A stretch of 60,026 nt of DNA, taken from the sequence record PV806339.1, one strand, 5' to 3'. Made by a program: the position numbers and the translations under genes. Positions 12,757 to 24,169 of the stretch are shown one piece after another (positions within the stretch are counted from its first letter, which is position 1; each line of letters starts with the position of its first letter). This DNA is from a phage. The notes under the pieces were generated by a model. That model made no database searches. It was not told where the DNA came from and was given only the letters and a program-made list of their open reading frames with translations.

Positions 12757-12998
12757 TTCTCGACTTCCACAATAACCTTCGTGCCACGGTGTCCTTCCTC
12801 ATGTCCGAGGGACACCCGGCCGCCCGGCATTACCCGTTAGGATATTTGTGGTCAGAAACGAAAATCGCGAAGCGCCGGGTAAACGCGGGTTATGTCACCC
12901 AAAGTTTACTGATGCAGTCCTGTATCGGCGCTGTACTCAACGGCAAGAAAGGCGGGAAAGAGTATAAAAAACTAATCAAGGAATTATCTGATGGCTAA
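12295..12998 (+). CDS. tail assembly chaperone G-T fusion made by a -1 frameshift at 12669-12675
   Basis: Conserved G/GT architecture of long-tailed phages. The T part (12675-12998) has no convincing initiation context of its own. Confidence 0.7.
12669..12675 (+). promoter_or_regulatory. -1 programmed frameshift slippery site A_AAA_AAG
   Basis: In the G frame the codons are GTA AAA AAG (V K K). The -1 frame is open from 12663 to 12998 and ends by overlapping the tape-measure start. Confidence 0.75.
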
Positions 12999-15900
12999 CA
13001 GTAAAGACGTCGAGCTACGAATCCGGGCGAGGGACTACAGCCAGAAGCCCCTAAAGGCTGTGACCAGTGCCATCGAGCAGATGGCGAAGGCGCAGGACGA
13101 ACAGCGTAAAGCAGCCGAGCGCGGTGAAGTCTCGACGCGTGATCTGGAAGCCGCATACAAAAAGCTGGAAAGTGCCGGGAACCAACTGCTTAAACTCAAC
13201 TCGCTGATCGAGGTGTTCAAACGGCAGAATCAGGCCATGACGGAGGCGACGGCCAAGACCGAAGGACTCCGCCAGAAACAGGCCGATCTCCAGAAGACCT
13301 ACGATTCCACCGAGAAGGTTACGCAGAAACAGGAACGGGCGCTGGCCCGGGTAACACGTCAGGTTGAAGCCGCAACCCGCGCGGAAGCGAATCAGGCCGA
13401 GCGCGTGTCCCGGGCTACCCGCGACCTCGAACGATACGGGATCGAGACGTCGAAAGTTGGGGCGGCCCAAGCGGGTATCGTCACCAGCGTCGCGCAGGTC
13501 AACCGTGTCCTCGAACGTCAGGACGAAATCATTTCAACGTCTGCCGCTGCGGCCGCACAAGCGAAGGTCATTCGTGGATTGCAGCAGCAGGCTGATCAGG
13601 CGATGGCGACGGCGCGCGGGTACCAAACCCTCGGCCGCGTGGTGCAGCAGGCAACCGGGCAACTCGGGCCGCTTGGCACGCAGATCCAGACTATCGTCAG
13701 CCCGGCAGAAGCGGCGCGCCGCACGCTGTCCGGCCTTGAGAATCAGGTACACGGCGTTACTACCGAACTGGCCCGTAACAGTAAGGAAGTGGAAAACGTC
13801 GCTCAGAAAGTCCGAATGCTCAACGAGGCGAATAAAACCGTCTCGGCGCTGGCGCAGCAAATCGACCTGTACCGCCAGCAGGTGTCAACCCTTCGGAACG
13901 CCCGCACTGAATACCAACAAGCGCGACAAGACGTCATCAAGTTAGCACAGCAGATGCGCACCGCGACAACTGATACGGGCGCTTTAGGTATTCAGATGCA
14001 GGCCGCCCAACAACGGCTTTCCGCAGCCGCGACGGCCATGCGAAACACGGCCACGGCCGCCCGGTCTACCCAAGCCGCGTTACGAGCGGCGCAGGTGGAC
14101 ACGCGTAACCTGTCCGATGCGGAAGCCCGGCTGATCTCCACCAGCCAACAATCGGCCGCAGCGCTTAACACGCTGTCCACCGCGACGAACCGGAACAGCC
14201 AAGCGGCGCGCGACGGCTCGAAGGCGTGGTCACTGTTCCGAGACGAGGGCCGTACCACGCTGTCCTTCCTGCAACGTATTCGCGGTGAAGTGCTGGCGCT
14301 GACGACCACTTACATCGGTTTTCAGGGGGCTATCAATCTGGCGGGAGGCGCGATCGACGCGTACAAGAACCGTCAGCAGGCGATGGTCAAAATTGCGAAC
14401 GTGGTGGGTAACAGCCAAGCGGCCATCAACAAAGAGTGGGAATACATGGTCGGTCTGGCGAATACGCTCGGGATCGACATCACCACCCTGTCACAGTCGT
14501 ACACGAAATTCGCCGTATCCGCGAAGGCGGTCGGCCTGTCATTGCAGGACTCAAAGTTCATCTTCGAAAGCGTAGCGAAAGCGGGCCGCGTCTTCCACCT
14601 GTCACAAGATGACATGGAAGGCGTATTCCGCGCGCTGGAACAGATGTTGTCGAAGGGTCAGGTGTATGCGGAAGAACTGCGCGGCCAATTGGGTGAACGT
14701 CTCCCGGCGGCCTTCGCGCTGTTCGCAAAAGGCATGGACATGACCACCGCCGAACTGATGAAGGCGATGGAAAACGGGGAAGTCACTGGCGAGGCGGTTA
14801 TCAACTTCGCCCGCGAGCAGGCCAAAGCGATTGACGCTCAACTCGCCACGGCGCAGAAAGGTGTCGATGCGATGGAAGCGCGCGCCCGCAACGCCATGAA
14901 CGCGTTTCAACTGGCATTGGCCGACGCAGGCTTTATCGAAGCGTACGTGCAGATGCTTAACAAGATCACCGACTTCCTGAACAGCGAGGATGGTCGGGCG
15001 GCCGCCGTTAAACTCGGCGAGGCGTTCGGCACGTTGGCCGACGCTGTGACGTGGTGCATCGAGAACGTGGACACGCTGATCACCGCGTTAAGCGTTCTGG
15101 CCGGGCTGAAAGTGGTGCAGTTCATCGGCGGCATGATTTCGGGCCTTAAAAACCTGCTGCCGCTGTTCAGCACGCTCGGTAAAATCGGCGATGGCATTAT
15201 CACGATGCTAGAAGGTGTCGCGGCCAGAATGATTGCGGCACAAGGGGCCGTAGGGCTTCTCGGCATCGCGTTGAAAGGGCTGACCCGGTTAATCCCGATT
15301 GTCGGATGGGCGCTGCTGGCGTACGACATCGGTGCCATCATGTACGACCAGTCGCAGACCTTCCGCGAGGCGGTCAACGCGATCATCCGGGACTTCAAGA
15401 ACCTCGGGAATCAACTGGCAGCCGTCGTCGAGTCCATCCCGGCGCTGCTGTACGATCTGGCGGTATCGGTGCTGCGCCCTATTACCACGATGTTCGCCGA
15501 CACCACGCAGGCGATTATTAAGTGGATCGCGGATGTCCTGAAACTGATCCCGGGCGTTGGTCAAGGGCTGTCCGAGTGGGCCATGTCCATTGGCGACGAC
15601 CTGACGAAAGAGCAGCGTGGCTTCCTCGAATCGACTGGCCGCATTTGGGACAACGTCAATAAACAGTGGGTGAAACTGAACGACGAAATGGTCGCGAAGA
15701 ACGCCGATGCGACTGACAAGATTCGCGGGCAGGTCAACCAACTGGCCGCCGACATGGCCGCTATCACGAAGGGCGAAGGCTTCCAGTTCACCCAAGACCC
15801 GGGAACAGGCGTCACGAAGCGCAGCCGCGAGATCGCGGGCCTGACGAAAGAGTTAGGCAAGATGGAAGAGGCGGCCAAGAAGGCGGACGTTGCGTCGCGT

Positions 15901-17286
15901 AAAGCGGAACAGCGGAAAAGCCTGTCCGGACGCCTTGCCATTATCGACGAGGAATTCGCGCCGCAGTACGCCCGCGCTAAGTCGATCGGCGGCTCGGAGG
16001 GTGATGCCCTTACCAAACGTCTCGACGCCGTTGTGGCCGCGCGCAAGAAGGCAGAAACGACCCTCTTCAACTCGCAGCAACGTACGACGGGTGGTATCAA
16101 GAAACAGGAAAACGCATTACAGGCGCTGATCAACAAGTACAACGAGTTGAATGCCGCCGTCGGCGTGAAGGAAGTTAAGATTGACCCGAATGCCACGTTT
16201 GACGACCGTCTGGCCGCTAAACTGGCCGCTGTCAATACGCAGTACGATCAGCTGATCGCCAAGTCGAAGAAACTCGGGACTGGCGGGCAGAATCTGGCCG
16301 GGCAGTTCGAAGACCTTCGCAAACGCAATCTGGAATACGCGACCACGCAGGCCAAACTCGAAGAACTGAAACGCATTGAGGATCAGTTAAACTCGCAGCA
16401 GGAGACGAAGAAAAACCTGCTGGACGAAATCAATGCCAAACGGCAGGCCGGGGTTATCTCCGAAAATGAAGCCGTCGCGCAGACGGTAGCCTTGTATCAG
16501 AACATGAATACGGGCATCGCGTCGTCAGCCGAGCAGCTTGACGCCTTCGCGCAGAAGATTAAAGACACGATGTCGCCGGAAGAATTCAGCCGCATCATGG
16601 CGCAGATTGCATCCGTCAAAGCCGGGCTGGTGGACGTCACAGGCACCTTCACGACGATGGACACGACTGTCGTTCAGGGCGTGCTGGACGGAATGAGCAC
16701 GGCGCTGTCATCCATCGTTGACGAAATGGCGTTGGTCGTGGCCGGGTCGCAAAGCATTGGCGATGCGTTCTCAAACCTCGGCGTGGCCGTGGCACGGTTC
16801 TTCGCGGACTTCTTGCAGAAGATCGCAATGGCAATCTTGCAGCAGATGGCGCTCAACGCACTGGCCTCTATGGGGGGTGGCATCGGTTCGGCGGCCGTTG
16901 CATTAGGCGGCACCGTGGCGAAACACAATGGCGGCACCGTCGGCAGTAAGACAACTGGCGGCACGCAGATGAAGGGCGGCATCAGCCCGGCCATGTTCGC
17001 GAATGCCCCGCGCTTCCACGACGGCGGTCTGCCGGGCTTGCGTTCTGACGAGGTTCCGACCATTCTGCAAAAAGGCGAACAGGTGCTGTCGAAGGATGAC
17101 CCGAACAACGTGCTTAACCAATCACGCGGAGGCGGCCAGACGGCGCAGTCGCCACAAGGTCTTCGCTTCGTGCTGGTGGATGATAGGTCGAAAGTGCCGG
17201 AAGCCATGAACACGCCGGAAGGAGAAAAGGCGGTGATGCAGATTCTTCAACGCAACGTACCGACGTTGAAAAACTTAGTGGGATAA
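12991..17286 (+). CDS. tape measure protein
   Basis: 1431 aa. Ala/Gln/Arg-rich coiled-coil N-terminal half, hydrophobic central segments, position after G/GT. Confidence 0.9.
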   Translation: MANSKDVELRIRARDYSQKPLKAVTSAIEQMAKAQDEQRKAAERGEVSTRDLEAAYKKLESAGNQLLKLNSLIEVFKRQNQAMTEATAKTEGLRQKQADLQKTYDSTEKVTQKQERALARVTRQVEAATRAEANQAERVSRATRDLERYGIETSKVGAAQAGIVTSVAQVNRVLERQDEIISTSAAAAAQAKVIRGLQQQADQAMATARGYQTLGRVVQQATGQLGPLGTQIQTIVSPAEAARRTLSGLENQVHGVTTELARNSKEVENVAQKVRMLNEANKTVSALAQQIDLYRQQVSTLRNARTEYQQARQDVIKLAQQMRTATTDTGALGIQMQAAQQRLSAAATAMRNTATAARSTQAALRAAQVDTRNLSDAEARLISTSQQSAAALNTLSTATNRNSQAARDGSKAWSLFRDEGRTTLSFLQRIRGEVLALTTTYIGFQGAINLAGGAIDAYKNRQQAMVKIANVVGNSQAAINKEWEYMVGLANTLGIDITTLSQSYTKFAVSAKAVGLSLQDSKFIFESVAKAGRVFHLSQDDMEGVFRALEQMLSKGQVYAEELRGQLGERLPAAFALFAKGMDMTTAELMKAMENGEVTGEAVINFAREQAKAIDAQLATAQKGVDAMEARARNAMNAFQLALADAGFIEAYVQMLNKITDFLNSEDGRAAAVKLGEAFGTLADAVTWCIENVDTLITALSVLAGLKVVQFIGGMISGLKNLLPLFSTLGKIGDGIITMLEGVAARMIAAQGAVGLLGIALKGLTRLIPIVGWALLAYDIGAIMYDQSQTFREAVNAIIRDFKNLGNQLAAVVESIPALLYDLAVSVLRPITTMFADTTQAIIKWIADVLKLIPGVGQGLSEWAMSIGDDLTKEQRGFLESTGRIWDNVNKQWVKLNDEMVAKNADATDKIRGQVNQLAADMAAITKGEGFQFTQDPGTGVTKRSREIAGLTKELGKMEEAAKKADVASRKAEQRKSLSGRLAIIDEEFAPQYARAKSIGGSEGDALTKRLDAVVAARKKAETTLFNSQQRTTGGIKKQENALQALINKYNELNAAVGVKEVKIDPNATFDDRLAAKLAAVNTQYDQLIAKSKKLGTGGQNLAGQFEDLRKRNLEYATTQAKLEELKRIEDQLNSQQETKKNLLDEINAKRQAGVISENEAVAQTVALYQNMNTGIASSAEQLDAFAQKIKDTMSPEEFSRIMAQIASVKAGLVDVTGTFTTMDTTVVQGVLDGMSTALSSIVDEMALVVAGSQSIGDAFSNLGVAVARFFADFLQKIAMAILQQMALNALASMGGGIGSAAVALGGTVAKHNGGTVGSKTTGGTQMKGGISPAMFANAPRFHDGGLPGLRSDEVPTILQKGEQVLSKDDPNNVLNQSRGGGQTAQSPQGLRFVLVDDRSKVPEAMNTPEGEKAVMQILQRNVPTLKNLVG

Positions 17287-17291
17287 TAACA

Positions 17292-18980
17292 ATGGCTTTG
17301 AGCGGACTGCGCCCCGCGCGCGAACAGTTTAACCAAGCAATCTACGACGCCCTTAACGGGGCGTACCAGCTTTACGTTCAGGACGTCTTCGGTCAGGCTG
17401 CGGCCAACCAGACGTACTACATGGCGAAGTGGATGAAGTTGAAGGCCGGGTCTTATACGGCGGTCATGTATGTCGATGACTCCGGCACCCTGTCTATCGA
17501 TCATGCCGTCGTCGCGACTGCGGCCATCGGCACCAATCCGAACAGCGGGGAGTTTACGATCTCCGCCGACGGCGTGTACCGCTTTGACTGCATCTACTCC
17601 AACGTCCCGGCCGACACCCCGGCGTACATGGCATTCCAGCTAATCCTTGACGGCCAGACCGTCGAGGTTAGCCGGGCCAACGACTTTATCGCGGACATCG
17701 TGCCGATCCCGGATAAGGCATTGGGGCCGAAGCCGCCATACTCCGACGACGTCCGCCTGACGTACCCGGTGTTCCTGCCGCTGCCGAACTGGAAAGACGG
17801 CGTCACCGAGCGCATCGAGTGGCAAACTGACGTCATGATTTCCGAGTCCGGCGCAGAACAGCGACGCCCGATCCGCCTGCACCCTCGCCGCTCATTCGAA
17901 GCGACGTTCCTGCGTTGGGAAGAAAAGCGTACGCTGCTCGATACGACCATCGCGGGCGTCGGCCAGTCTCCGTTACTCCTGCCTTTGTGGCACGACATGA
18001 CAGCCACGGAAAACGATGCGCCAGCCGGGTCGGTGGACATCTTCGGCCAGTTCCGGGTGAAAGACTTCAACGTGGGTGACGTGGTCATGTTCAACCGTGG
18101 CACGACGTGGGACTATGAGACGAACATCATCGCCGGGCTGGACATTGACGCCGGGCATATGACGCTGACGTTTGGCCTCCAGTCGGACACGCCGCGAGGC
18201 ACGCGCCTGTATCCGGTTCGCGTTGCGCAGATCCGGGAGGCGATGAACGGCCAGCAGATGACCGATAGCGTGTCACAGACCCAAGTCCGGTTCTTCTGCA
18301 CCGAGAACTATGACCTGACGCCATCGTGGTCAGACTTCCCTGTCTACACCCGTACCGGGCTGCACATCTTCGTCCTGCCGGAAGATTGGGGATCGTCCAA
18401 TGAAATCACGTCTGACCGCCTGACCTACAATTTCGATAACCAGTCCGGCCCGGTGGTCATTGTTGACCCGGGCGGCCAGAACTACGGCACCGTGAAGAAG
18501 TCGTACACCATTAACGGCCGCACAGCGGATCGGCAGTTCCGGCAGATCCTGTTCGCGCTCCGTGGCCGCACCAAGACTTTCCACCTGCCGCTCGATACGA
18601 ATGACTTCATTCTGTCCCGCGACATCAACCCGGCCGACGGCGCGCTCGTAGTCCGGCGCTGCGGTTATACTCAGTACATCGGCGGGACGCAGGAAACGAA
18701 ACGTGACATCATGGTCGAACTGTACGACGGCACCAGAATCCCGACCACCATCATTTCGAGTCGTATCGTTGGGGATGAAGAGTGGCTATTCCTGTCACAG
18801 TCCATCCCGGCGACGTCCAGAAACGACGTCCGGCGCATCGGATATATCCCCGTAGCGCGATTAGATGTTGACGGAATCGAAATAAAACGGTTGACTGACT
18901 CGGCGGGCGTAAGTCAAGTTTCTCTGACCTTCAAGTTTTTCGACGATCGGAGGATTGCAACGCCCTTACCATTATCATAA
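17292..18980 (+). CDS. distal tail / tail-tip protein (GTA g12 / DUF2460-like)
   Basis: 562 aa. The segment ERIEWQTDVMISESGAEQRRPIRLHPRRSFEATF...LLLPLWHD resembles the family found upstream of BR0599-type genes. Confidence 0.5.
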   Translation: MALSGLRPAREQFNQAIYDALNGAYQLYVQDVFGQAAANQTYYMAKWMKLKAGSYTAVMYVDDSGTLSIDHAVVATAAIGTNPNSGEFTISADGVYRFDCIYSNVPADTPAYMAFQLILDGQTVEVSRANDFIADIVPIPDKALGPKPPYSDDVRLTYPVFLPLPNWKDGVTERIEWQTDVMISESGAEQRRPIRLHPRRSFEATFLRWEEKRTLLDTTIAGVGQSPLLLPLWHDMTATENDAPAGSVDIFGQFRVKDFNVGDVVMFNRGTTWDYETNIIAGLDIDAGHMTLTFGLQSDTPRGTRLYPVRVAQIREAMNGQQMTDSVSQTQVRFFCTENYDLTPSWSDFPVYTRTGLHIFVLPEDWGSSNEITSDRLTYNFDNQSGPVVIVDPGGQNYGTVKKSYTINGRTADRQFRQILFALRGRTKTFHLPLDTNDFILSRDINPADGALVVRRCGYTQYIGGTQETKRDIMVELYDGTRIPTTIISSRIVGDEEWLFLSQSIPATSRNDVRRIGYIPVARLDVDGIEIKRLTDSAGVSQVSLTFKFFDDRRIATPLPLS

Positions 18981-18989
18981 GAGGGCATT

Positions 18990-19808
18990 ATGTCTTACAA
19001 CATTATCGAGACGTCCAACGACAACGGCAGGCCCGTATTTATGTACGAGTTTCGCCTGCTGGATAAATACTGGCGTTATACCTCCGCAGACGCTAAAGTA
19101 AGTGCGCTGGGGAGCATTTGGGAACCGATGGGAGTGTCCGACGACGGGATTAAACAAACGGGCGAGGCTAAGACGGATGCGCTAAATCTGACGCTGCCAA
19201 ACTCGAATCCCGTCGTCGGCCTCTTCATCGGGACTCCCCCCGGCTCCCCCGTAACCCTGACTATCCGACGGATGCACCTTGACGATAACGACCCGGTGGT
19301 CTGTTATGTCGGCACCGTCGATAGCATCAATCAGGGCGAAAACCCTACCGTAGCAACTGTCACCTGTTCAACCCTGTCGGCCACGATGGACAGAAATGGT
19401 CTGCGCCTGTCGTGGAGCCGTGGTTGTCCGCACGCGCTGTATGACGGCCAATGCCGCGTTAACAAAGAAGCCTTCCGCGTGGATGCCACGATCCTTACCG
19501 TTGGCGCGGGTACCGTTACGGCTGCTGCATACGCCACACGGCCAGATGGGTATTTCGCAGGCGGCTTCATCGAGTGGATAGATCCGGTGTACGGCGTGGA
19601 ACGTCGCGGCATCGAAACCCATACCGGGAATACCATTACCATCTTTGGTACCGTAGACGGCTTGGCCGGGGGCTACATCCTCAAGACTTACCCGGGATGC
19701 CCGCGCACCAGTACGGCCTGTGATACCATCTTCAACAATCTGGCGAACTTCGGCGGTATCCCGTCGCTGCCAGACCGTTCCCCGTTCGACGGCAACCCAA
19801 TCTTTTAA
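18990..19808 (+). CDS. tail-tip protein, DUF2163 / BR0599 family
   Basis: 272 aa. Characteristic C-terminus GCPRTSTACDTIFNNLANFGGIPSLPDRSPFDGNPIF and an N-terminal ...WRYTSAD... motif. Confidence 0.75.
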   Translation: MSYNIIETSNDNGRPVFMYEFRLLDKYWRYTSADAKVSALGSIWEPMGVSDDGIKQTGEAKTDALNLTLPNSNPVVGLFIGTPPGSPVTLTIRRMHLDDNDPVVCYVGTVDSINQGENPTVATVTCSTLSATMDRNGLRLSWSRGCPHALYDGQCRVNKEAFRVDATILTVGAGTVTAAAYATRPDGYFAGGFIEWIDPVYGVERRGIETHTGNTITIFGTVDGLAGGYILKTYPGCPRTSTACDTIFNNLANFGGIPSLPDRSPFDGNPIF

Positions 19809-19819
19809 GGAGAATCGCT

Positions 19820-20050
19820 ATGTGGTGGGCGTTAGCTATGCTGGTGGCCTCGGTGCTGATCAACGCGGCCCTCGCGCCGAAGCCTGCATCGGCAAAACCA
19901 GCAACAATTCAGGACTTCGACATCCCGCAGGTGAAGGAAGGCACGCCGCAGTCCGTGGTATTCGGCGAGGTGTGGACAGCCGACTGGCAGGTATTGGGCT
20001 TCGGCAACTTCCGAACCAAAGCAGTTAAAGCGAAACAGGCGAAAAAATAA
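19820..20050 (+). CDS. small membrane protein resembling the detached N-terminus of J/g15-type tail proteins
   Basis: 76 aa. An N-terminal TMD, then QDFDIPQVKEGTPQSVVFGEVW...GFGNFRT...KAKQAKK. This pattern normally forms the first ~80 aa of a single large host-specificity protein. Confidence 0.7.
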   Translation: MWWALAMLVASVLINAALAPKPASAKPATIQDFDIPQVKEGTPQSVVFGEVWTADWQVLGFGNFRTKAVKAKQAKK

Positions 20051-20289
20051 TGAGCAGACACGACGAGCCGCAGGATCAGCCGCGCATCTTTATGCGCCAT
20101 GCCCGGAAACTCGGGTATTGCAAAAACGGGTCGGAGCGCTTGGCCGAGCGCTTCGGAATCACCTTCGAACAATTCCTACGGGAAGGCTACCCGGTAGCGG
20201 AAGCCATGAAGTCCGCAAACCCGCTGCTGCGTAAAGCCGCAGCCGTGGCCCAACAAGAATGGGACGAGGCGCACGCACATGGGAAGTAA
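20050..20289 (+). CDS. hypothetical 79-aa protein inserted between the two parts of the J-like gene
   Basis: TAATG coupling to the upstream ORF and an 11-nt overlap with the downstream ORF. Probably helical; no family recognised. Confidence 0.65.
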   Translation: MSRHDEPQDQPRIFMRHARKLGYCKNGSERLAERFGITFEQFLREGYPVAEAMKSANPLLRKAAAVAQQEWDEAHAHGK

Positions 20290-23200
20290 AGCCAAGAAGA
20301 TTACGGTTGGGTACAAATACTACATGGGCCTGTTTATGGGCCTTTTCCGTGGCCCGGTGAATGAGATTGTCGAGATCCGCGTGGGCGACCGTACCGCGTG
20401 GACAGGCTCAATCACTGGCAACACAACCATCCAGATTAACCGCGAAGACTTGTTCGGCGGCACGAAGGCGGAAGGCGGCATTGATGGCCCGCTAGAACTG
20501 TACATGGGCGCGCCGACGCAGACCGTCAGCCAGAAGTTAAAGAACATGCTCGGTGGCCGCCAGCCGGAATTCCGTGGTGTCGTTACCGCGTATTTCGACG
20601 GCCTGATCTGCGCCATGAACCCATACCCGAAGCAGTGGAAATTCAAGGCCCGCCGCTCTACGGCCGGGTGGACTGGCGGCGTCTGGTATCCGGAAAAATG
20701 TCTGGTCAAGATGCAGGGGTACGACGGTCAGGGCAATCAGCACGAAATCCATGCCATGAACCCTGCGCACATCCTGTATGAGTGCCAGTCGAACTTCGAA
20801 TGGGGCCGTGGCCTGTCACGCTCGCTTATCGACGATACGACGTTCCGCCTTGTGGCCGACACCCTGTTTAACGAGAACTTCGGCCTTTGCATCCGATGGA
20901 ACCGTCAGGACACGCTCGAATCGTTCATGCAGCTTATCCTCGACCACATTGGCGGTGCGATGTACGTCAGCAAAGTGACGGGCAAACTGTCCCTGCGGTT
21001 GATCCGGAAGGACTACGACTTCGACACGCTGCCGATCTTCGACACGGATTCCGGGCTGCTGTCCATTCAGGAAGCGACCAACGCGTCTCCGGCCAATCTG
21101 GTTAACGAAGTGGTCGTGACCTACCACAACCCGATCATGGACGAAGACCAGCAGGTGCGTAGCCACAACCTCGCGCAGATCCAGAATCAGGGCTGTCTGA
21201 ACAGCAACACGATTGAATACCTCGGCATCCCTACCGGGAAACTGGCGATGCAGGTGGCACAGCGTGACTTGCGCGCCGCGTCTACCAACGTCCGCCGTTT
21301 CACCGTGATCTGTGACCGCCGGGCATGGAACGTGCAGCCGGGCGACGTGCTGAAAGTGCGTGACCCGAAACAGCGCGGCCTGACCGAAGTTGTTATCCGC
21401 GTCGGTACCGTTGAAGATGGCACGCTGCCGGACGGCAAGATCAAGATTGTCGCGCTGCAAGACCAGTTCGCCTTCCAGTTAAACACGTTCAACCAAGTCG
21501 AGCCACCATCCGGATACGAGCCTGACCTGACTCCCGCGATTGCCCGCCGTATCGTGTACGAAATGCCGTACGTGGATCTGGTGCAGCAGCTACCGGACGG
21601 CGAACTGAACGCCGTTGGCCCGAACGATGCGTTCATCAACTCGCAGGCCGAGAAGCCGACTGACATGTCCGCCGCGTATGACATGGGTATCATGGCCGAA
21701 GGTGAATCGGGCTTCGACATCCGTGGCAACGGTGACTTCGGCGCGTTCGGATCACTGGCCGCCGACATCGACTACCTGTCAACGCAAATCGTTCTGTCCG
21801 AAATGACCGACATGTGGGACGACGTGCAGCCCGGATTTGTGGCGCGCATCGCCAAGCCTGTTCTTGACGGCCAACGCACGCAGATGGAAATCGCGGAAGA
21901 GTTTGTCCGCATCGACGCCATCAATGGCAACGTGATTACCGTGGCGCGCGGCGTACTTGACACCATCCCATTCCGCCACCAGAAAAGCGAAATGCTTTGG
22001 GTGACGACGTACGACGGCGGTACCGACTGGCAGAAATACGCGGGCAACGAGTCCATCGACATCAAGATTCTGCCGTGGACATTGGGCGGTGGCCGCTTCC
22101 CGATTGAAGATGCGCCGATTGATCATCTGGACATGGACTTCCGCCAGATCCGCCCATACCCGCCGGGCAACGTGCAGCACTATCTCGCTTCGACGTCAAC
22201 GCTGCAACGCTGGTATGTCCCGTCCGCGCTTACCTACACGGCCAACGCCGGGGAAACGCCTGACACGTACACCCTGACTTGGGCGCACCGCGACCGTATC
22301 CTGCAAGCGGATAAGCCTGTGCCGCACACCGACGGCGACATCGGGCCAGAACCGGGTACCACGTACACCATCCGCGTCTACAATCAGGAAGGCACGTTAG
22401 TTCGCACCGAATCCGGCATCAACGGCACGTCGTGGAATTGGCCGTACGCAACCGCAGCGGCTGACATGAATGTCGAAGCCAGTCTGTTCGACCCGGTGCT
22501 CGCGACGCTCCGCCTGACGTCTGTCCGCAGTGGCCGCGAAAGTTGGGAATACTACGAAATGAAGGTCAGCGTTTATAAAAAGCCGCCGCAGTTCGTGTAT
22601 GACGCCAGCCTGATGCAGTTCGCCGCGCAGCCGTACAACGCCGCCAGTGATCCTAACCCGCCAACGCCACCGATGGACGGCCCGTATGTTTCGTCCCTGA
22701 TGCAGTTCGCCGCGCAGCCGGATGGTAGCGGTGATTTCGGCGAAGCAGATAGCATGAGTGGCCCGAACGTGGCGCTGCTGCCGCACCAAGTTACGCAGAC
22801 GTCGTCCATCATTACGCCGCTCGATACGCTGCTGTACGAAACACCGTACATCCAGTTATCCCGCGACGGCCGTGACCTGAACACGTCGAAAGTCAGCGCG
22901 TACGTGGCGCGTTCGTCCGACCGTACCGTCGATTCGTATACCCTGTTCACCAAGCATGAAGCCGATGCGGATTACGCTTCCGCCGGGACTCAGCCGTGGA
23001 CACCGTGGGGCATGACAACCGTCGGCCTCGGCTTCTTCACGGACGAAGTGACGATTGACCCGACGTCGGATAAAGACGGCGTTCCTATCGCGGGCGCGCA
23101 GGTGGGCGATCTTCTGCTTATCGATCAGGAATTGATGTCCATCACCGCCATCAACGGCCGCACGTACAAGATTGGGCGTGGCGTGGCTGACACCATTCCG

Positions 23201-24169
23201 GCGCAGCACTACAGCCGCCGTCCGGTCTGGCTGATCTCCGTGGGCTTCGGCTACTCCGACATGGCATTCGGCGATAACGAAAAGGCGATGGTCATCGTCC
23301 GCCCGGATACCTACGGCACCGACATCCCGCTGAACAAGCTGTACCCGCTCCAGTTGCAGATGCAGTACCGCCCGAAACGTCCATACCCGCCGGGCCTGAT
23401 GATGATTGGCGGCCAACCGTTCTTCAACACCGCGAGCGGACTGGCAGACGATTTCAACCCGTACAACAACCTGAAAGCGAAAGACGTGGCCTGCACGTAC
23501 GCCCACCGCAACCGCGTAACTCAGGCAAACACGGCGCGCGACCATTTCGCCGTCGGTATCAACCCGGAACCGGGCGTGAAGTACCGCGTGCGTATCGGCT
23601 ATGCGTACTGGTCGCAGTCCGGCAGTGGATTCTCGCTGCTGTCTCAGTTCGACACGGAAGACGCGGGCTTCATCATGCGCGCGGCCGACCTTGAACGTTG
23701 GGGCCGTCAGGCGGGCTATGCGCAAGACGCTGGCGGATACTCCACGTTAAACGTGACCGTCAACGCGATTCGTGATGGAATGCTGAACTGGCAGGGATAC
23801 ACGATGACCGTGCGCGTGCCGTCCTTCCCGCTTCCTCCGGGTCAGAAACCGGGCGGTGGCGATGGGCCGTGGAACCCGCCGGGCGGAGGCAATACAGGCG
23901 GTACCACGCCACCTACGGAGCCGCCGGATCGTCCAGACCCGAGCGAGCCGGGTACAACCGACCCATCCGAGCCGACCAAGCCGGACGAACCGGAAGATCC
24001 GCAACCGCCTGTAGACCCGGAAGACCCGGATACTGATCCGCCGACTCCGCCAGACCCGCCGATCGACCCGACCAACGTGCCGGGCTGGTCATTGAGTTGG
24101 GATCACGGTTGGGCGATGACGCTGCCAGATTTCCGATACGTTCCACCAGCAGAAGAGGAACCTGAATAA
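20279..24169 (+). CDS. central tail fibre / host specificity protein (lambda J / GTA g15-like)
   Basis: 1296 aa. The N-terminus KKITVGYKYYMGLFMGLFRGPVNEIVEIRVGDRTAW...LFGG is typical of this family. It carries an ~90-aa Pro/Asp/Glu/Thr-rich C-terminal linker. Confidence 0.85.
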   Translation: MGSKAKKITVGYKYYMGLFMGLFRGPVNEIVEIRVGDRTAWTGSITGNTTIQINREDLFGGTKAEGGIDGPLELYMGAPTQTVSQKLKNMLGGRQPEFRGVVTAYFDGLICAMNPYPKQWKFKARRSTAGWTGGVWYPEKCLVKMQGYDGQGNQHEIHAMNPAHILYECQSNFEWGRGLSRSLIDDTTFRLVADTLFNENFGLCIRWNRQDTLESFMQLILDHIGGAMYVSKVTGKLSLRLIRKDYDFDTLPIFDTDSGLLSIQEATNASPANLVNEVVVTYHNPIMDEDQQVRSHNLAQIQNQGCLNSNTIEYLGIPTGKLAMQVAQRDLRAASTNVRRFTVICDRRAWNVQPGDVLKVRDPKQRGLTEVVIRVGTVEDGTLPDGKIKIVALQDQFAFQLNTFNQVEPPSGYEPDLTPAIARRIVYEMPYVDLVQQLPDGELNAVGPNDAFINSQAEKPTDMSAAYDMGIMAEGESGFDIRGNGDFGAFGSLAADIDYLSTQIVLSEMTDMWDDVQPGFVARIAKPVLDGQRTQMEIAEEFVRIDAINGNVITVARGVLDTIPFRHQKSEMLWVTTYDGGTDWQKYAGNESIDIKILPWTLGGGRFPIEDAPIDHLDMDFRQIRPYPPGNVQHYLASTSTLQRWYVPSALTYTANAGETPDTYTLTWAHRDRILQADKPVPHTDGDIGPEPGTTYTIRVYNQEGTLVRTESGINGTSWNWPYATAAADMNVEASLFDPVLATLRLTSVRSGRESWEYYEMKVSVYKKPPQFVYDASLMQFAAQPYNAASDPNPPTPPMDGPYVSSLMQFAAQPDGSGDFGEADSMSGPNVALLPHQVTQTSSIITPLDTLLYETPYIQLSRDGRDLNTSKVSAYVARSSDRTVDSYTLFTKHEADADYASAGTQPWTPWGMTTVGLGFFTDEVTIDPTSDKDGVPIAGAQVGDLLLIDQELMSITAINGRTYKIGRGVADTIPAQHYSRRPVWLISVGFGYSDMAFGDNEKAMVIVRPDTYGTDIPLNKLYPLQLQMQYRPKRPYPPGLMMIGGQPFFNTASGLADDFNPYNNLKAKDVACTYAHRNRVTQANTARDHFAVGINPEPGVKYRVRIGYAYWSQSGSGFSLLSQFDTEDAGFIMRAADLERWGRQAGYAQDAGGYSTLNVTVNAIRDGMLNWQGYTMTVRVPSFPLPPGQKPGGGDGPWNPPGGGNTGGTTPPTEPPDRPDPSEPGTTDPSEPTKPDEPEDPQPPVDPEDPDTDPPTPPDPPIDPTNVPGWSLSWDHGWAMTLPDFRYVPPAEEEPE
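22609..22720 (+). repeat. 25-nt perfect direct repeat inside the J-like gene
   Basis: cctgatgcagttcgccgcgcagccg occurs at 22609-22633 and again at 22696-22720, encoding SLMQFAAQP twice. Confidence 0.9.

Follow-up and report, generated by a model that had tools for sequence, protein, structure and literature searches.

In lambda and T1, as in Chi, a separate small plug protein is encoded beside the J-like gene (the C-terminal residues ~133–223 of gpI with gpJ in lambda, and gp34 with gp33 in T1). Residues 135–223 of lambda gpI form a lumenal trimeric plug whose N-terminal part is hydrophobic, and tail-tip domains are spread over different proteins in different phages (PMC10721106). According to the T1 paper, the lumenal trimeric insertion-protein tripod under the tape-measure protein's C-terminus is seen in lambda and Chi as well (PMC11945409). 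In g15 of the gene transfer agent (GTA) RcGTA and in the megatron of R4C (COG4733/Phage-tail_3), the modules follow in the same order as in Chi, namely a hydrophobic iris/penetration helix, a beta region, a G/K linker and hub domains, but they lie in one chain that is encoded after an NlpC/P60 peptidase gene (present in R4C), whereas Chi has two chains with the gene of a putative helper between them. Residues 1–45 of the R4C megatron constitute the iris/penetration domain, which is followed by an adhesin-like domain (PMC10276861). We compared with these systems the tail-tip region of a phage DNA of 60,026 nucleotides (nt) (PV806339.1; this whole stretch is termed the window). Three open reading frames (ORFs) on the plus strand of the window, 19820–20050 (76 amino acids (aa)), 20050–20289 (79 aa) and 20279–24169 (1296 aa), had been taken in a preliminary description for a J/g15-type host-specificity gene split by an inserted, unrelated passenger ORF. 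The three ORFs were verified in the sequence, as were the TAATG stop/start overlap (20046–20052) that couples the first two and the 11-nt overlap (20279–20289) in which the 79-aa ORF runs past the ATG of the large gene.

The source phage was found to be Chi-like, of the genus Chivirus. Its 6.9-kb tail-tip segment was 98.9% identical to that of Salmonella phage SPN19, and 98 phage records covered at least 80% of the segment. Every annotated record carried three separate coding sequences, with 'tail assembly chaperone' (twice) and 'tail protein' as the usual labels. When the products were compared with the solved Chi tail tip (PDB 8VJH), the 76-aa protein was 100% identical to chain U ('Tail assembly protein 1') and the 1296-aa protein aligned along its entire length with chain A ('Minor tail protein') apart from scattered substitutions; the 79-aa product is outside this entry. 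The genome is of the same type as Chi, and there was no difference of substance between the two, the source phage being another isolate of the same genus. The arrangement is old and widespread and its structure has already been solved, so that it is not a fresh disruption. We consider it probable that the region is an ordinary three-gene Chi-like tail-tip cassette, in which plug and hub work in trans and the 79-aa protein serves as a helper, and not a recently broken gene.

Two chains of the Chi tail tip are one chain in fused relatives

The two larger parts of the cassette were first set against single-chain proteins. On phrog_1101 (1405 positions), the 76-aa protein aligned to positions 2–74 (E=1.4e-7) and the 1296-aa protein to positions 76–811 (E=7e-298), and single chains ran across both parts, gp29 of Brevundimonas phage Delta covering positions 2–659 and IMG/VR locus L040 positions 2–866. 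RcGTA g15 (E=8e-23) and the R4C megatron (E=7e-16) matched positions 18–188 in one stretch, their N-termini having been taken from PDB (6TBA/6TEH for g15 and 8GTC_M for the megatron). A tblastn search of phage genomes with the 76-aa protein matched 382 records, and in phage Delta and Sphingomonas phage Birtae the match fell at the beginning of a large 'minor tail protein' encoded immediately behind the BR0599 gene. Pairwise comparison revealed that residues 1–71 of Delta gp29 resemble the 76-aa protein (E=1e-10) and residues 76–640 the large protein from its residue 6 (E=5e-26); the corresponding values for Birtae were E=1e-9 and E=3e-50. The single-chain set comprised Delta gp29, the Birtae protein, six uncultivated IMG/VR loci, RcGTA g15 and the R4C megatron. 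Delta gp29, the 944-aa Birtae protein and the IMG/VR loci L040–L051 are close homologues of both Chi proteins in the same type of tail module, with 33–55% identity over block 1 (the 76-aa part), but they differ from Chi in being encoded by one fused ORF.

The break position in every fused form was the Lys-rich linker, and the fused junction (e.g. ...KAKQKGLFGSKKADAGFRYF...) resembles the Chi sequence ...KAKQAKK-stop followed by the start of the 1296-aa protein, MGSKAKKITVGYKYY..., which begins at the Gly/Lys-rich linker. These data showed that the 76-aa and 1296-aa proteins together correspond to one chain of the fused relatives and that they are separate chains in the deposited Chi tail tip. 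In the window, the iris helix and adhesin-like region are not in the same chain as the hub domains, being split over the 76-aa and 1296-aa ORFs. The preliminary description had recognized in the two ORFs the contiguous N-terminus of J/g15-type proteins, which was confirmed at the profile level by the colinearity on phrog_1101 and by the Delta and Birtae alignments; its placement of the break in a Lys-rich linker agreed with the junction in all fused forms, and the assembly of the halves in trans was borne out by 8VJH, in which both are chains of the solved tip. Fused homologues thus exist, and the similarity of the 76-aa protein in profile searches was significant. In Chi and most relatives the two parts assemble in trans as separate chains, and in the fused relatives the Lys-rich linker joins them.

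The large protein was further characterized as a hub. It aligned from residue 1 with the JBD30 hub gp53 (8RK3_o, E=7e-139), and Pfam placed a Phage-tail_3 domain (PF13550) at residues 210–376 (E=1.5e-10). The same Pfam search did not find in it the Rcc01698_C domain that is present in Delta gp29 and Birtae. An MG-K--TVGY-YY N-terminus was common to all 120 hub homologues among the matches listed, at ~50% identity. The 1296-aa protein is the trimeric hub and central tip protein.

We then examined 83 loci in which both parts are present, made up of 80 IMG/VR loci, the phage loci and the source-phage window. The parts were split in 75 of the 83 loci and fused in 8, and the split cassette of small protein, middle ORF and hub was found to span the Chi, B3/D3112/JBD30, PIN2 and Bosavirus groups. 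In Pseudomonas phage JBD30 the same three genes occur as gp51 (76 aa), gp52 (72 aa) and gp53 (hub, 8RK3), and gp52 and gp53 also overlap by 11 nt; gp51 and gp52 were neither modelled nor discussed in the JBD30 structure paper. The middle ORF of the split loci was 65–87 aa long, started mostly 1 or 4 nt inside the upstream stop and typically ended 1–23 nt inside the hub gene.

The local appearance of two in-frame halves parted by a small ORF is what would suggest a recent, lineage-specific insertion of a passenger or moron that disrupted the host-specificity gene in this phage. This is already refuted by the comparative data, since the same cassette is present in 75 loci of several phage groups with middle ORFs that are ~32% identical on average, the overlap recurs in JBD30, and both halves are functional virion proteins. 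Moreover, GC was flat across the region (0.57–0.60), and no promoter-like or terminator-like site was found on the plus strand in a scan of the region. A moron or autonomous cassette, which had been suggested for the 79-aa ORF, was rejected on the same grounds: the ORF has no promoter or terminator of its own, and the middle ORF is in all 75 split loci and is not patchy. We regard a recent insertion as practically excluded.

Equally little credit can be given to recoding, in which a frameshift, a translational bypass or an intron would join the 76-aa ORF to the 1296-aa ORF or to the 79-aa ORF. The 76-aa and 1296-aa ORFs are in a common frame in both Chi and JBD30, and the 76-aa ORF has an A6 run ahead of its stop, as recoding would have it, but the 228-nt gap between the two ORFs contains four in-frame stops. 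The plug and hub frames were the same in 57 split loci but different in 18, and that of the middle ORF with respect to the first ORF was variable too, indicating that no frame relation is required. Rfam gave no match in the region, either to an intron or to any other RNA family, 8VJH has chains of 76 aa and of 1296 aa, the latter starting at Met1, and in the zero frame the A run does not make up a canonical X_XXY_YYZ heptamer. Taken with the flat GC and the lack of promoter and terminator sites, these results led us to reject the frameshift, bypass, intron and moron readings, and an intein likewise. The A6 run lies just 5′ of the TAATG junction (window positions 20042–20052, GCGAAAAAATAATG) and is probably not a slippery site but a consequence of the conserved Lys-rich linker and of the overlapping start codon. 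Across the family of the 76-aa protein, the Lys-Lys at the end was invariant.

The 76-residue plug protein

The 76-aa protein (phrog_1180, E=2e-34) consists of a hydrophobic N-terminal helix, LAPKP, a beta region (EGTPQSVVFGEVW) and a Lys-rich tail. The plug-type motif is present in it as MWWALAMLVASVLINAALAPKP...EGTPQSVVFGE, comprising a hydrophobic segment, a LAPK-like motif and a G-P--V-(Y/F)G beta region. Lambda gpI and T1 gp34 share with it the hydrophobic segment, LAPK and a G-P--V-YG beta region, and the lumenal trimer that they form beneath the tape-measure C-terminus would be a common feature too, as the T1 paper states for Chi. The 76-aa protein is a virion component, and it is the equivalent of the iris/penetration domain and the start of the adhesin-like domain of g15/megatron, as well as of the C-terminal module of lambda gpI. 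Virion mass spectrometry of PIN1 and PIN2, which are Chi-like Klebsiella phages, listed the I-like PIN2_0028 and the large tail protein PIN2_0030 (PMC12264135); the YSD1 paper contains no proteomics text on the cassette genes.

Pfam returned no match for the 76-aa protein, including none to the N-terminal Lambda_tail_I domain (PF06805). This is explained by the extent of Lambda_tail_I, which in Pfam spans gpI residues 14–97 only, so that lambda gpI carries an N-terminal domain which the Chi protein is without. Lambda differs further by an upstream gpK and by the lack of a middle ORF between I and J, and the sequence likeness is weak. Profile–profile comparison was made using hhalign. The block-1 family aligned with three gpI-like C-termini with a score of 18.4 (P=0.01), LAPK falling on LAPK, and with the g15/megatron N-termini with a score of 20.8 (P=0.004). 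Both scores exceeded all 30 column-shuffled controls, whose maxima were 14.0 (gpI C-terminus) and 14.7 (g15), and the registers agreed. When the profile was aligned with single sequences of g15, megatron and gpI, the registers were correct and the E-values weak. The gpI sequence used was exactly 8IYK_I; entry 9E7M models the C-terminal 90 residues only. A scan of viral contigs with the gpI C-terminus found only lambda-like loci at 98–100% identity, which were unusable for a profile. The hhalign scores may be taken as weak but coherent sequence support for a structural equivalence already asserted in the literature. PDB searches with the narrow 76-aa profile and with the hub profile reached Chi and JBD30 but not g15 or gpJ, direct hidden Markov model (HMM) searches did not connect the Chi hub to g15, and a word-indexed search with the 76-aa query returned only close relatives of 76–81 aa.

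Based on the literature on homologues, we infer for Chi a plug/penetration mechanism in which the small plug proteins would be held on the hub and the hydrophobic N-terminal helix would act as a gate or plug. This helix probably inserts in the outer membrane at infection when the tip opens.

The label given to both small ORFs in RefSeq/PHROGs, a tail assembly chaperone of the lambda gpG/gpGT type, is unsupported. Both ORFs are located downstream of the tape-measure, distal-tail and hub genes, whereas a protein of the gpG type is encoded immediately ahead of the tape-measure gene and has a −1 frameshift extension, and the 76-aa protein is a virion component.

The protein encoded in the middle

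The 79-aa protein belongs to phrog_1196 (E=4.8e-31), a family with a conserved C--G core (C24, G27 and G46 are invariant) that is encoded between the I-like and J-like genes. A single HMM family took in all 54 unique middle ORFs after one iteration, with the middle ORFs of PIN2 and Bosavirus DoCa10 joining at E ~1e-23. A member was present in all 75 split loci, including the irregular L007 (frameshifted), L063 (extra 1.6 kb) and L083 (extra small ORF), and was absent from all 8 fused loci over 5 kb to each side, demonstrating perfect co-occurrence of the middle ORF with the split arrangement. The middle ORF, an unrelated passenger in the preliminary description, is a member of a conserved family. 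Mean pairwise identity was 32% for the middle ORF, 54% for the I-like protein and 49% for the hub, indicating that the middle ORF diverges faster, and its divergence co-varied with that of its neighbours (Spearman rho ~0.36).

The family is small. When 1.84 billion representative proteins were searched exhaustively, no more than 39 members came up at E≤1e-3, mostly of 62–81 aa, and a word-indexed search with the 79-aa query gave only 4 matches. Like the 76-aa ORF, the 79-aa ORF had no Pfam match; its product matched no PDB chain and is not part of 8VJH. A confident AF2 model consisted of five helices with a mean predicted local distance difference test (pLDDT) score of 85. The 79-aa protein is a phage-specific helical protein. 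We also considered the middle ORF as a remnant of the g14 peptidase. The Pfam search found no g14-type NlpC/P60 peptidase domain in any ORF between the hub and the large protein, and the remnant was rejected on account of its wrong position, its helical fold and the lack of a peptidase domain.

Several variants of the middle ORF were observed. Tandem duplications of its domain (~140 aa) were found, likewise between I-like and J-like genes (L171:1075–1494 and L172:953–1366; proteins P0152, P0157, P0162, P0170, P0171 and P0179), and in L171 the I-like protein (125 aa) is extended by 50 aa at its N-terminus, which recalls phrog_36584. The long matches of the 79-aa search, the tape-measure-like P0165 and the low-complexity repeat P0181, were uninformative. 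In L007 (5231–5469), a Chi-like IMG/VR contig, a 1-nt frameshift interrupts the middle ORF so that the HMM matches two frames, representing either a sequencing error or a natural pseudogene of the putative helper. GU169904.1 (3175–3411), a record named Staphylococcus phage SA1, encodes a protein 100% identical to the Chi 79-aa protein, and PV593182.1 and PV596763.1, named Staphylococcus phage SVV09-A and Pseudomonas phage E21, matched at 34% identity in the same way as Proteus phages; these three records are likely to reflect contamination or wrongly named hosts.

A chaperone-like helper role of the 79-aa protein is plausible. PIN2_0029, the gene between the I-like and the large tail protein, was not in the PIN1/PIN2 virion mass-spectrometry list (PMC12264135). 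Because the protein is found only where the plug peptide is untethered and is absent from the available virion evidence, we tentatively infer that it is a dedicated escort for the free membrane-active plug peptide, needed only with the plug untethered; the perfect co-occurrence fits such an escort, but does not prove it. The helper may escort or solubilise the free hydrophobic peptide, or hand it to the hub during assembly, and would thereby replace the covalent tether of the fused proteins and the possible role of the N-terminal domain of lambda gpI. It is improbable, in our estimate, that the 79-aa protein is instead no assembly helper but a small regulator that binds DNA, or a virion protein that is ejected or present in few copies. 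The regulator had been suggested in the preliminary description, and we found no support for it, nor for the moron.

The reading of the region as a cassette of plug, hub and helper has to be weighed against several points. The direct links from Chi to the gpI C-terminus and to g15 are weak (P=0.004–0.01), and the strong link to g15 is transitive, running through phrog_1101 and the fused Delta and Birtae proteins. For the exact placement of chain U in 8VJH, the sources are the PDB sequence record and the statement of the T1 paper. For the 79-aa protein there was no recognisable relative of solved fold, and a small product of this kind can escape proteomics and cryo-electron microscopy.

History, surroundings and meaning of the cassette

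To order the split and fused forms, a neighbour-joining tree was built from block 1 and the hub N-terminal region (531 columns, 53 taxa, 200 bootstraps) and was rooted with R4C, a distant outgroup. Split forms were monophyletic in 0 of the 200 bootstraps. A fused clade of L040, L043, L050 and L051 was nested among B3/JBD30-like split lineages, and Delta and Birtae grouped with split PIN2 and DoCa10, which suggests that the fused forms inside the group may have arisen secondarily. The middle ORFs, as far as their sequences tell, are of a single origin. With single-origin middle ORFs and nested fused forms, the simplest history would be an ancestral three-gene cassette followed by at least two secondary in-frame deletions, which fused the halves and lost the helper. 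The cassette itself may have come from an insertion in a g15-like gene, or else it may go back to two separate genes such as those of lambda.

The former origin would amount to an ancient fission, in which, at the base of the Chi/B3/JBD30/Bosavirus group, the middle ORF entered the Lys-rich linker and divided a single g15-like gene on one occasion, and the fused forms within the group are later reversals. It agrees with the fused state of the distant relatives RcGTA g15 and R4C megatron, with the break lying exactly in the linker, and with the membership of all middle ORFs in one family, which is consistent with a single acquisition. However, plug and hub/fibre are separate proteins in lambda and T1, so that a separate plug could be the ancestral state and g15 a fusion derived from it. 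With the 0/200 split monophyly, two or more additional fusions are still required, the region bears no compositional or regulatory trace of insertion, and a neighbour-joining tree of ~530 columns with a distant outgroup does not fix the root polarity. We consider the ancient fission rather unlikely. The split by insertion proposed in the preliminary description thus stands in so far as the two ORFs are halves of one chain in g15/megatron; the split is not specific to this genome (75/83 loci), there is no sign of insertion, and the tree favours secondary fusions.

The genes around the cassette have a familiar order. The tape-measure gene (12991–17286) is upstream of a distal tail protein-like gene (17292–18980, plus strand; 562 aa), whose product showed a weak DUF2460 match and matched phrog_1082 (E=8e-178) and whose position is that of JBD30 gp49, termed the distal tail protein in the JBD30 structure paper. 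It is followed by the gene of a 272-aa hub/upper-baseplate protein (18990–19808, plus strand; Pfam Phage_BR0599, E=1e-12, Phage_phiJL001_Gp84_N, phrog_778), the counterpart of RcGTA g13, lambda gpL and JBD30 gp50, the last of which also has the same position. The order of tape-measure, distal-tail-like and BR0599 hub genes is a GTA g12/g13-like layout. From the BR0599 hub gene the order continues with the 76-aa gene, the 79-aa gene and the J-like gene, placing the plug gene between the gpL-like hub and the J-like gene. The three genes of this ordinary Chi-like siphophage cassette would be translationally coupled late genes, and their coupled translation would favour matched (3:3) amounts.

Some loci and records departed from this pattern. 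In L063 (5238–6665, minus strand), an opposite-strand gene is wedged between the I-like gene and the middle ORF. Its 475-aa product has a signal-peptide-like N-terminus and a Cys-rich C-terminus and resembles moron cargo, indicating that the first cassette junction can tolerate insertions. Split locus L083 (5241–5617) has an extra 58-aa ORF between the middle ORF and the hub gene. In Stenotrophomonas phage Sonora (L088:5004–5930), a 308-aa protein combines the I-like block with the adhesin-like domain; what remains of the J-like protein is encoded downstream as a separate product. Public records label the BR0599 hub (18990–19808 and homologues) as 'FAD/FMN-containing dehydrogenase' and, in phage Phraden, the distal tail protein as 'putative resolvase'. 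B3 ORF55 has an over-extended start (151 aa) and overlaps ORF54, and 'tail length tape measure protein' is the label of two small SPN19 ORFs that lie upstream of the tape-measure gene (record coordinates for such annotation noise: L002:1001–2689, L090:1503–1958 and L001:1004–1707).

For Chi itself there is little new, as the genes are annotated, both structural proteins are in the solved tail tip and modular tail-tip domains are already in the literature. The gain for annotation is that the 76-aa 'tail assembly chaperone' is really a virion plug/insertion protein, equivalent to the iris domain of g15/megatron and the C-terminus of gpI, and in genome scans a 'split' tail-tip gene of this type should be read as a normal modular variant and not as a disruption. 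If the escort role of the 79-aa protein is true, there would be three interchangeable ways of handling the plug in assembly: it would be fused covalently to the hub in g15/megatron and Delta gp29, carried by an N-terminal domain in lambda gpI, and escorted by a separate co-translated protein in Chi (gp29) and JBD30 (gp52). The close fused and split relatives, with the small gene only in the split versions, constitute a natural experiment and provide a testable hypothesis for the function of phrog_1196.

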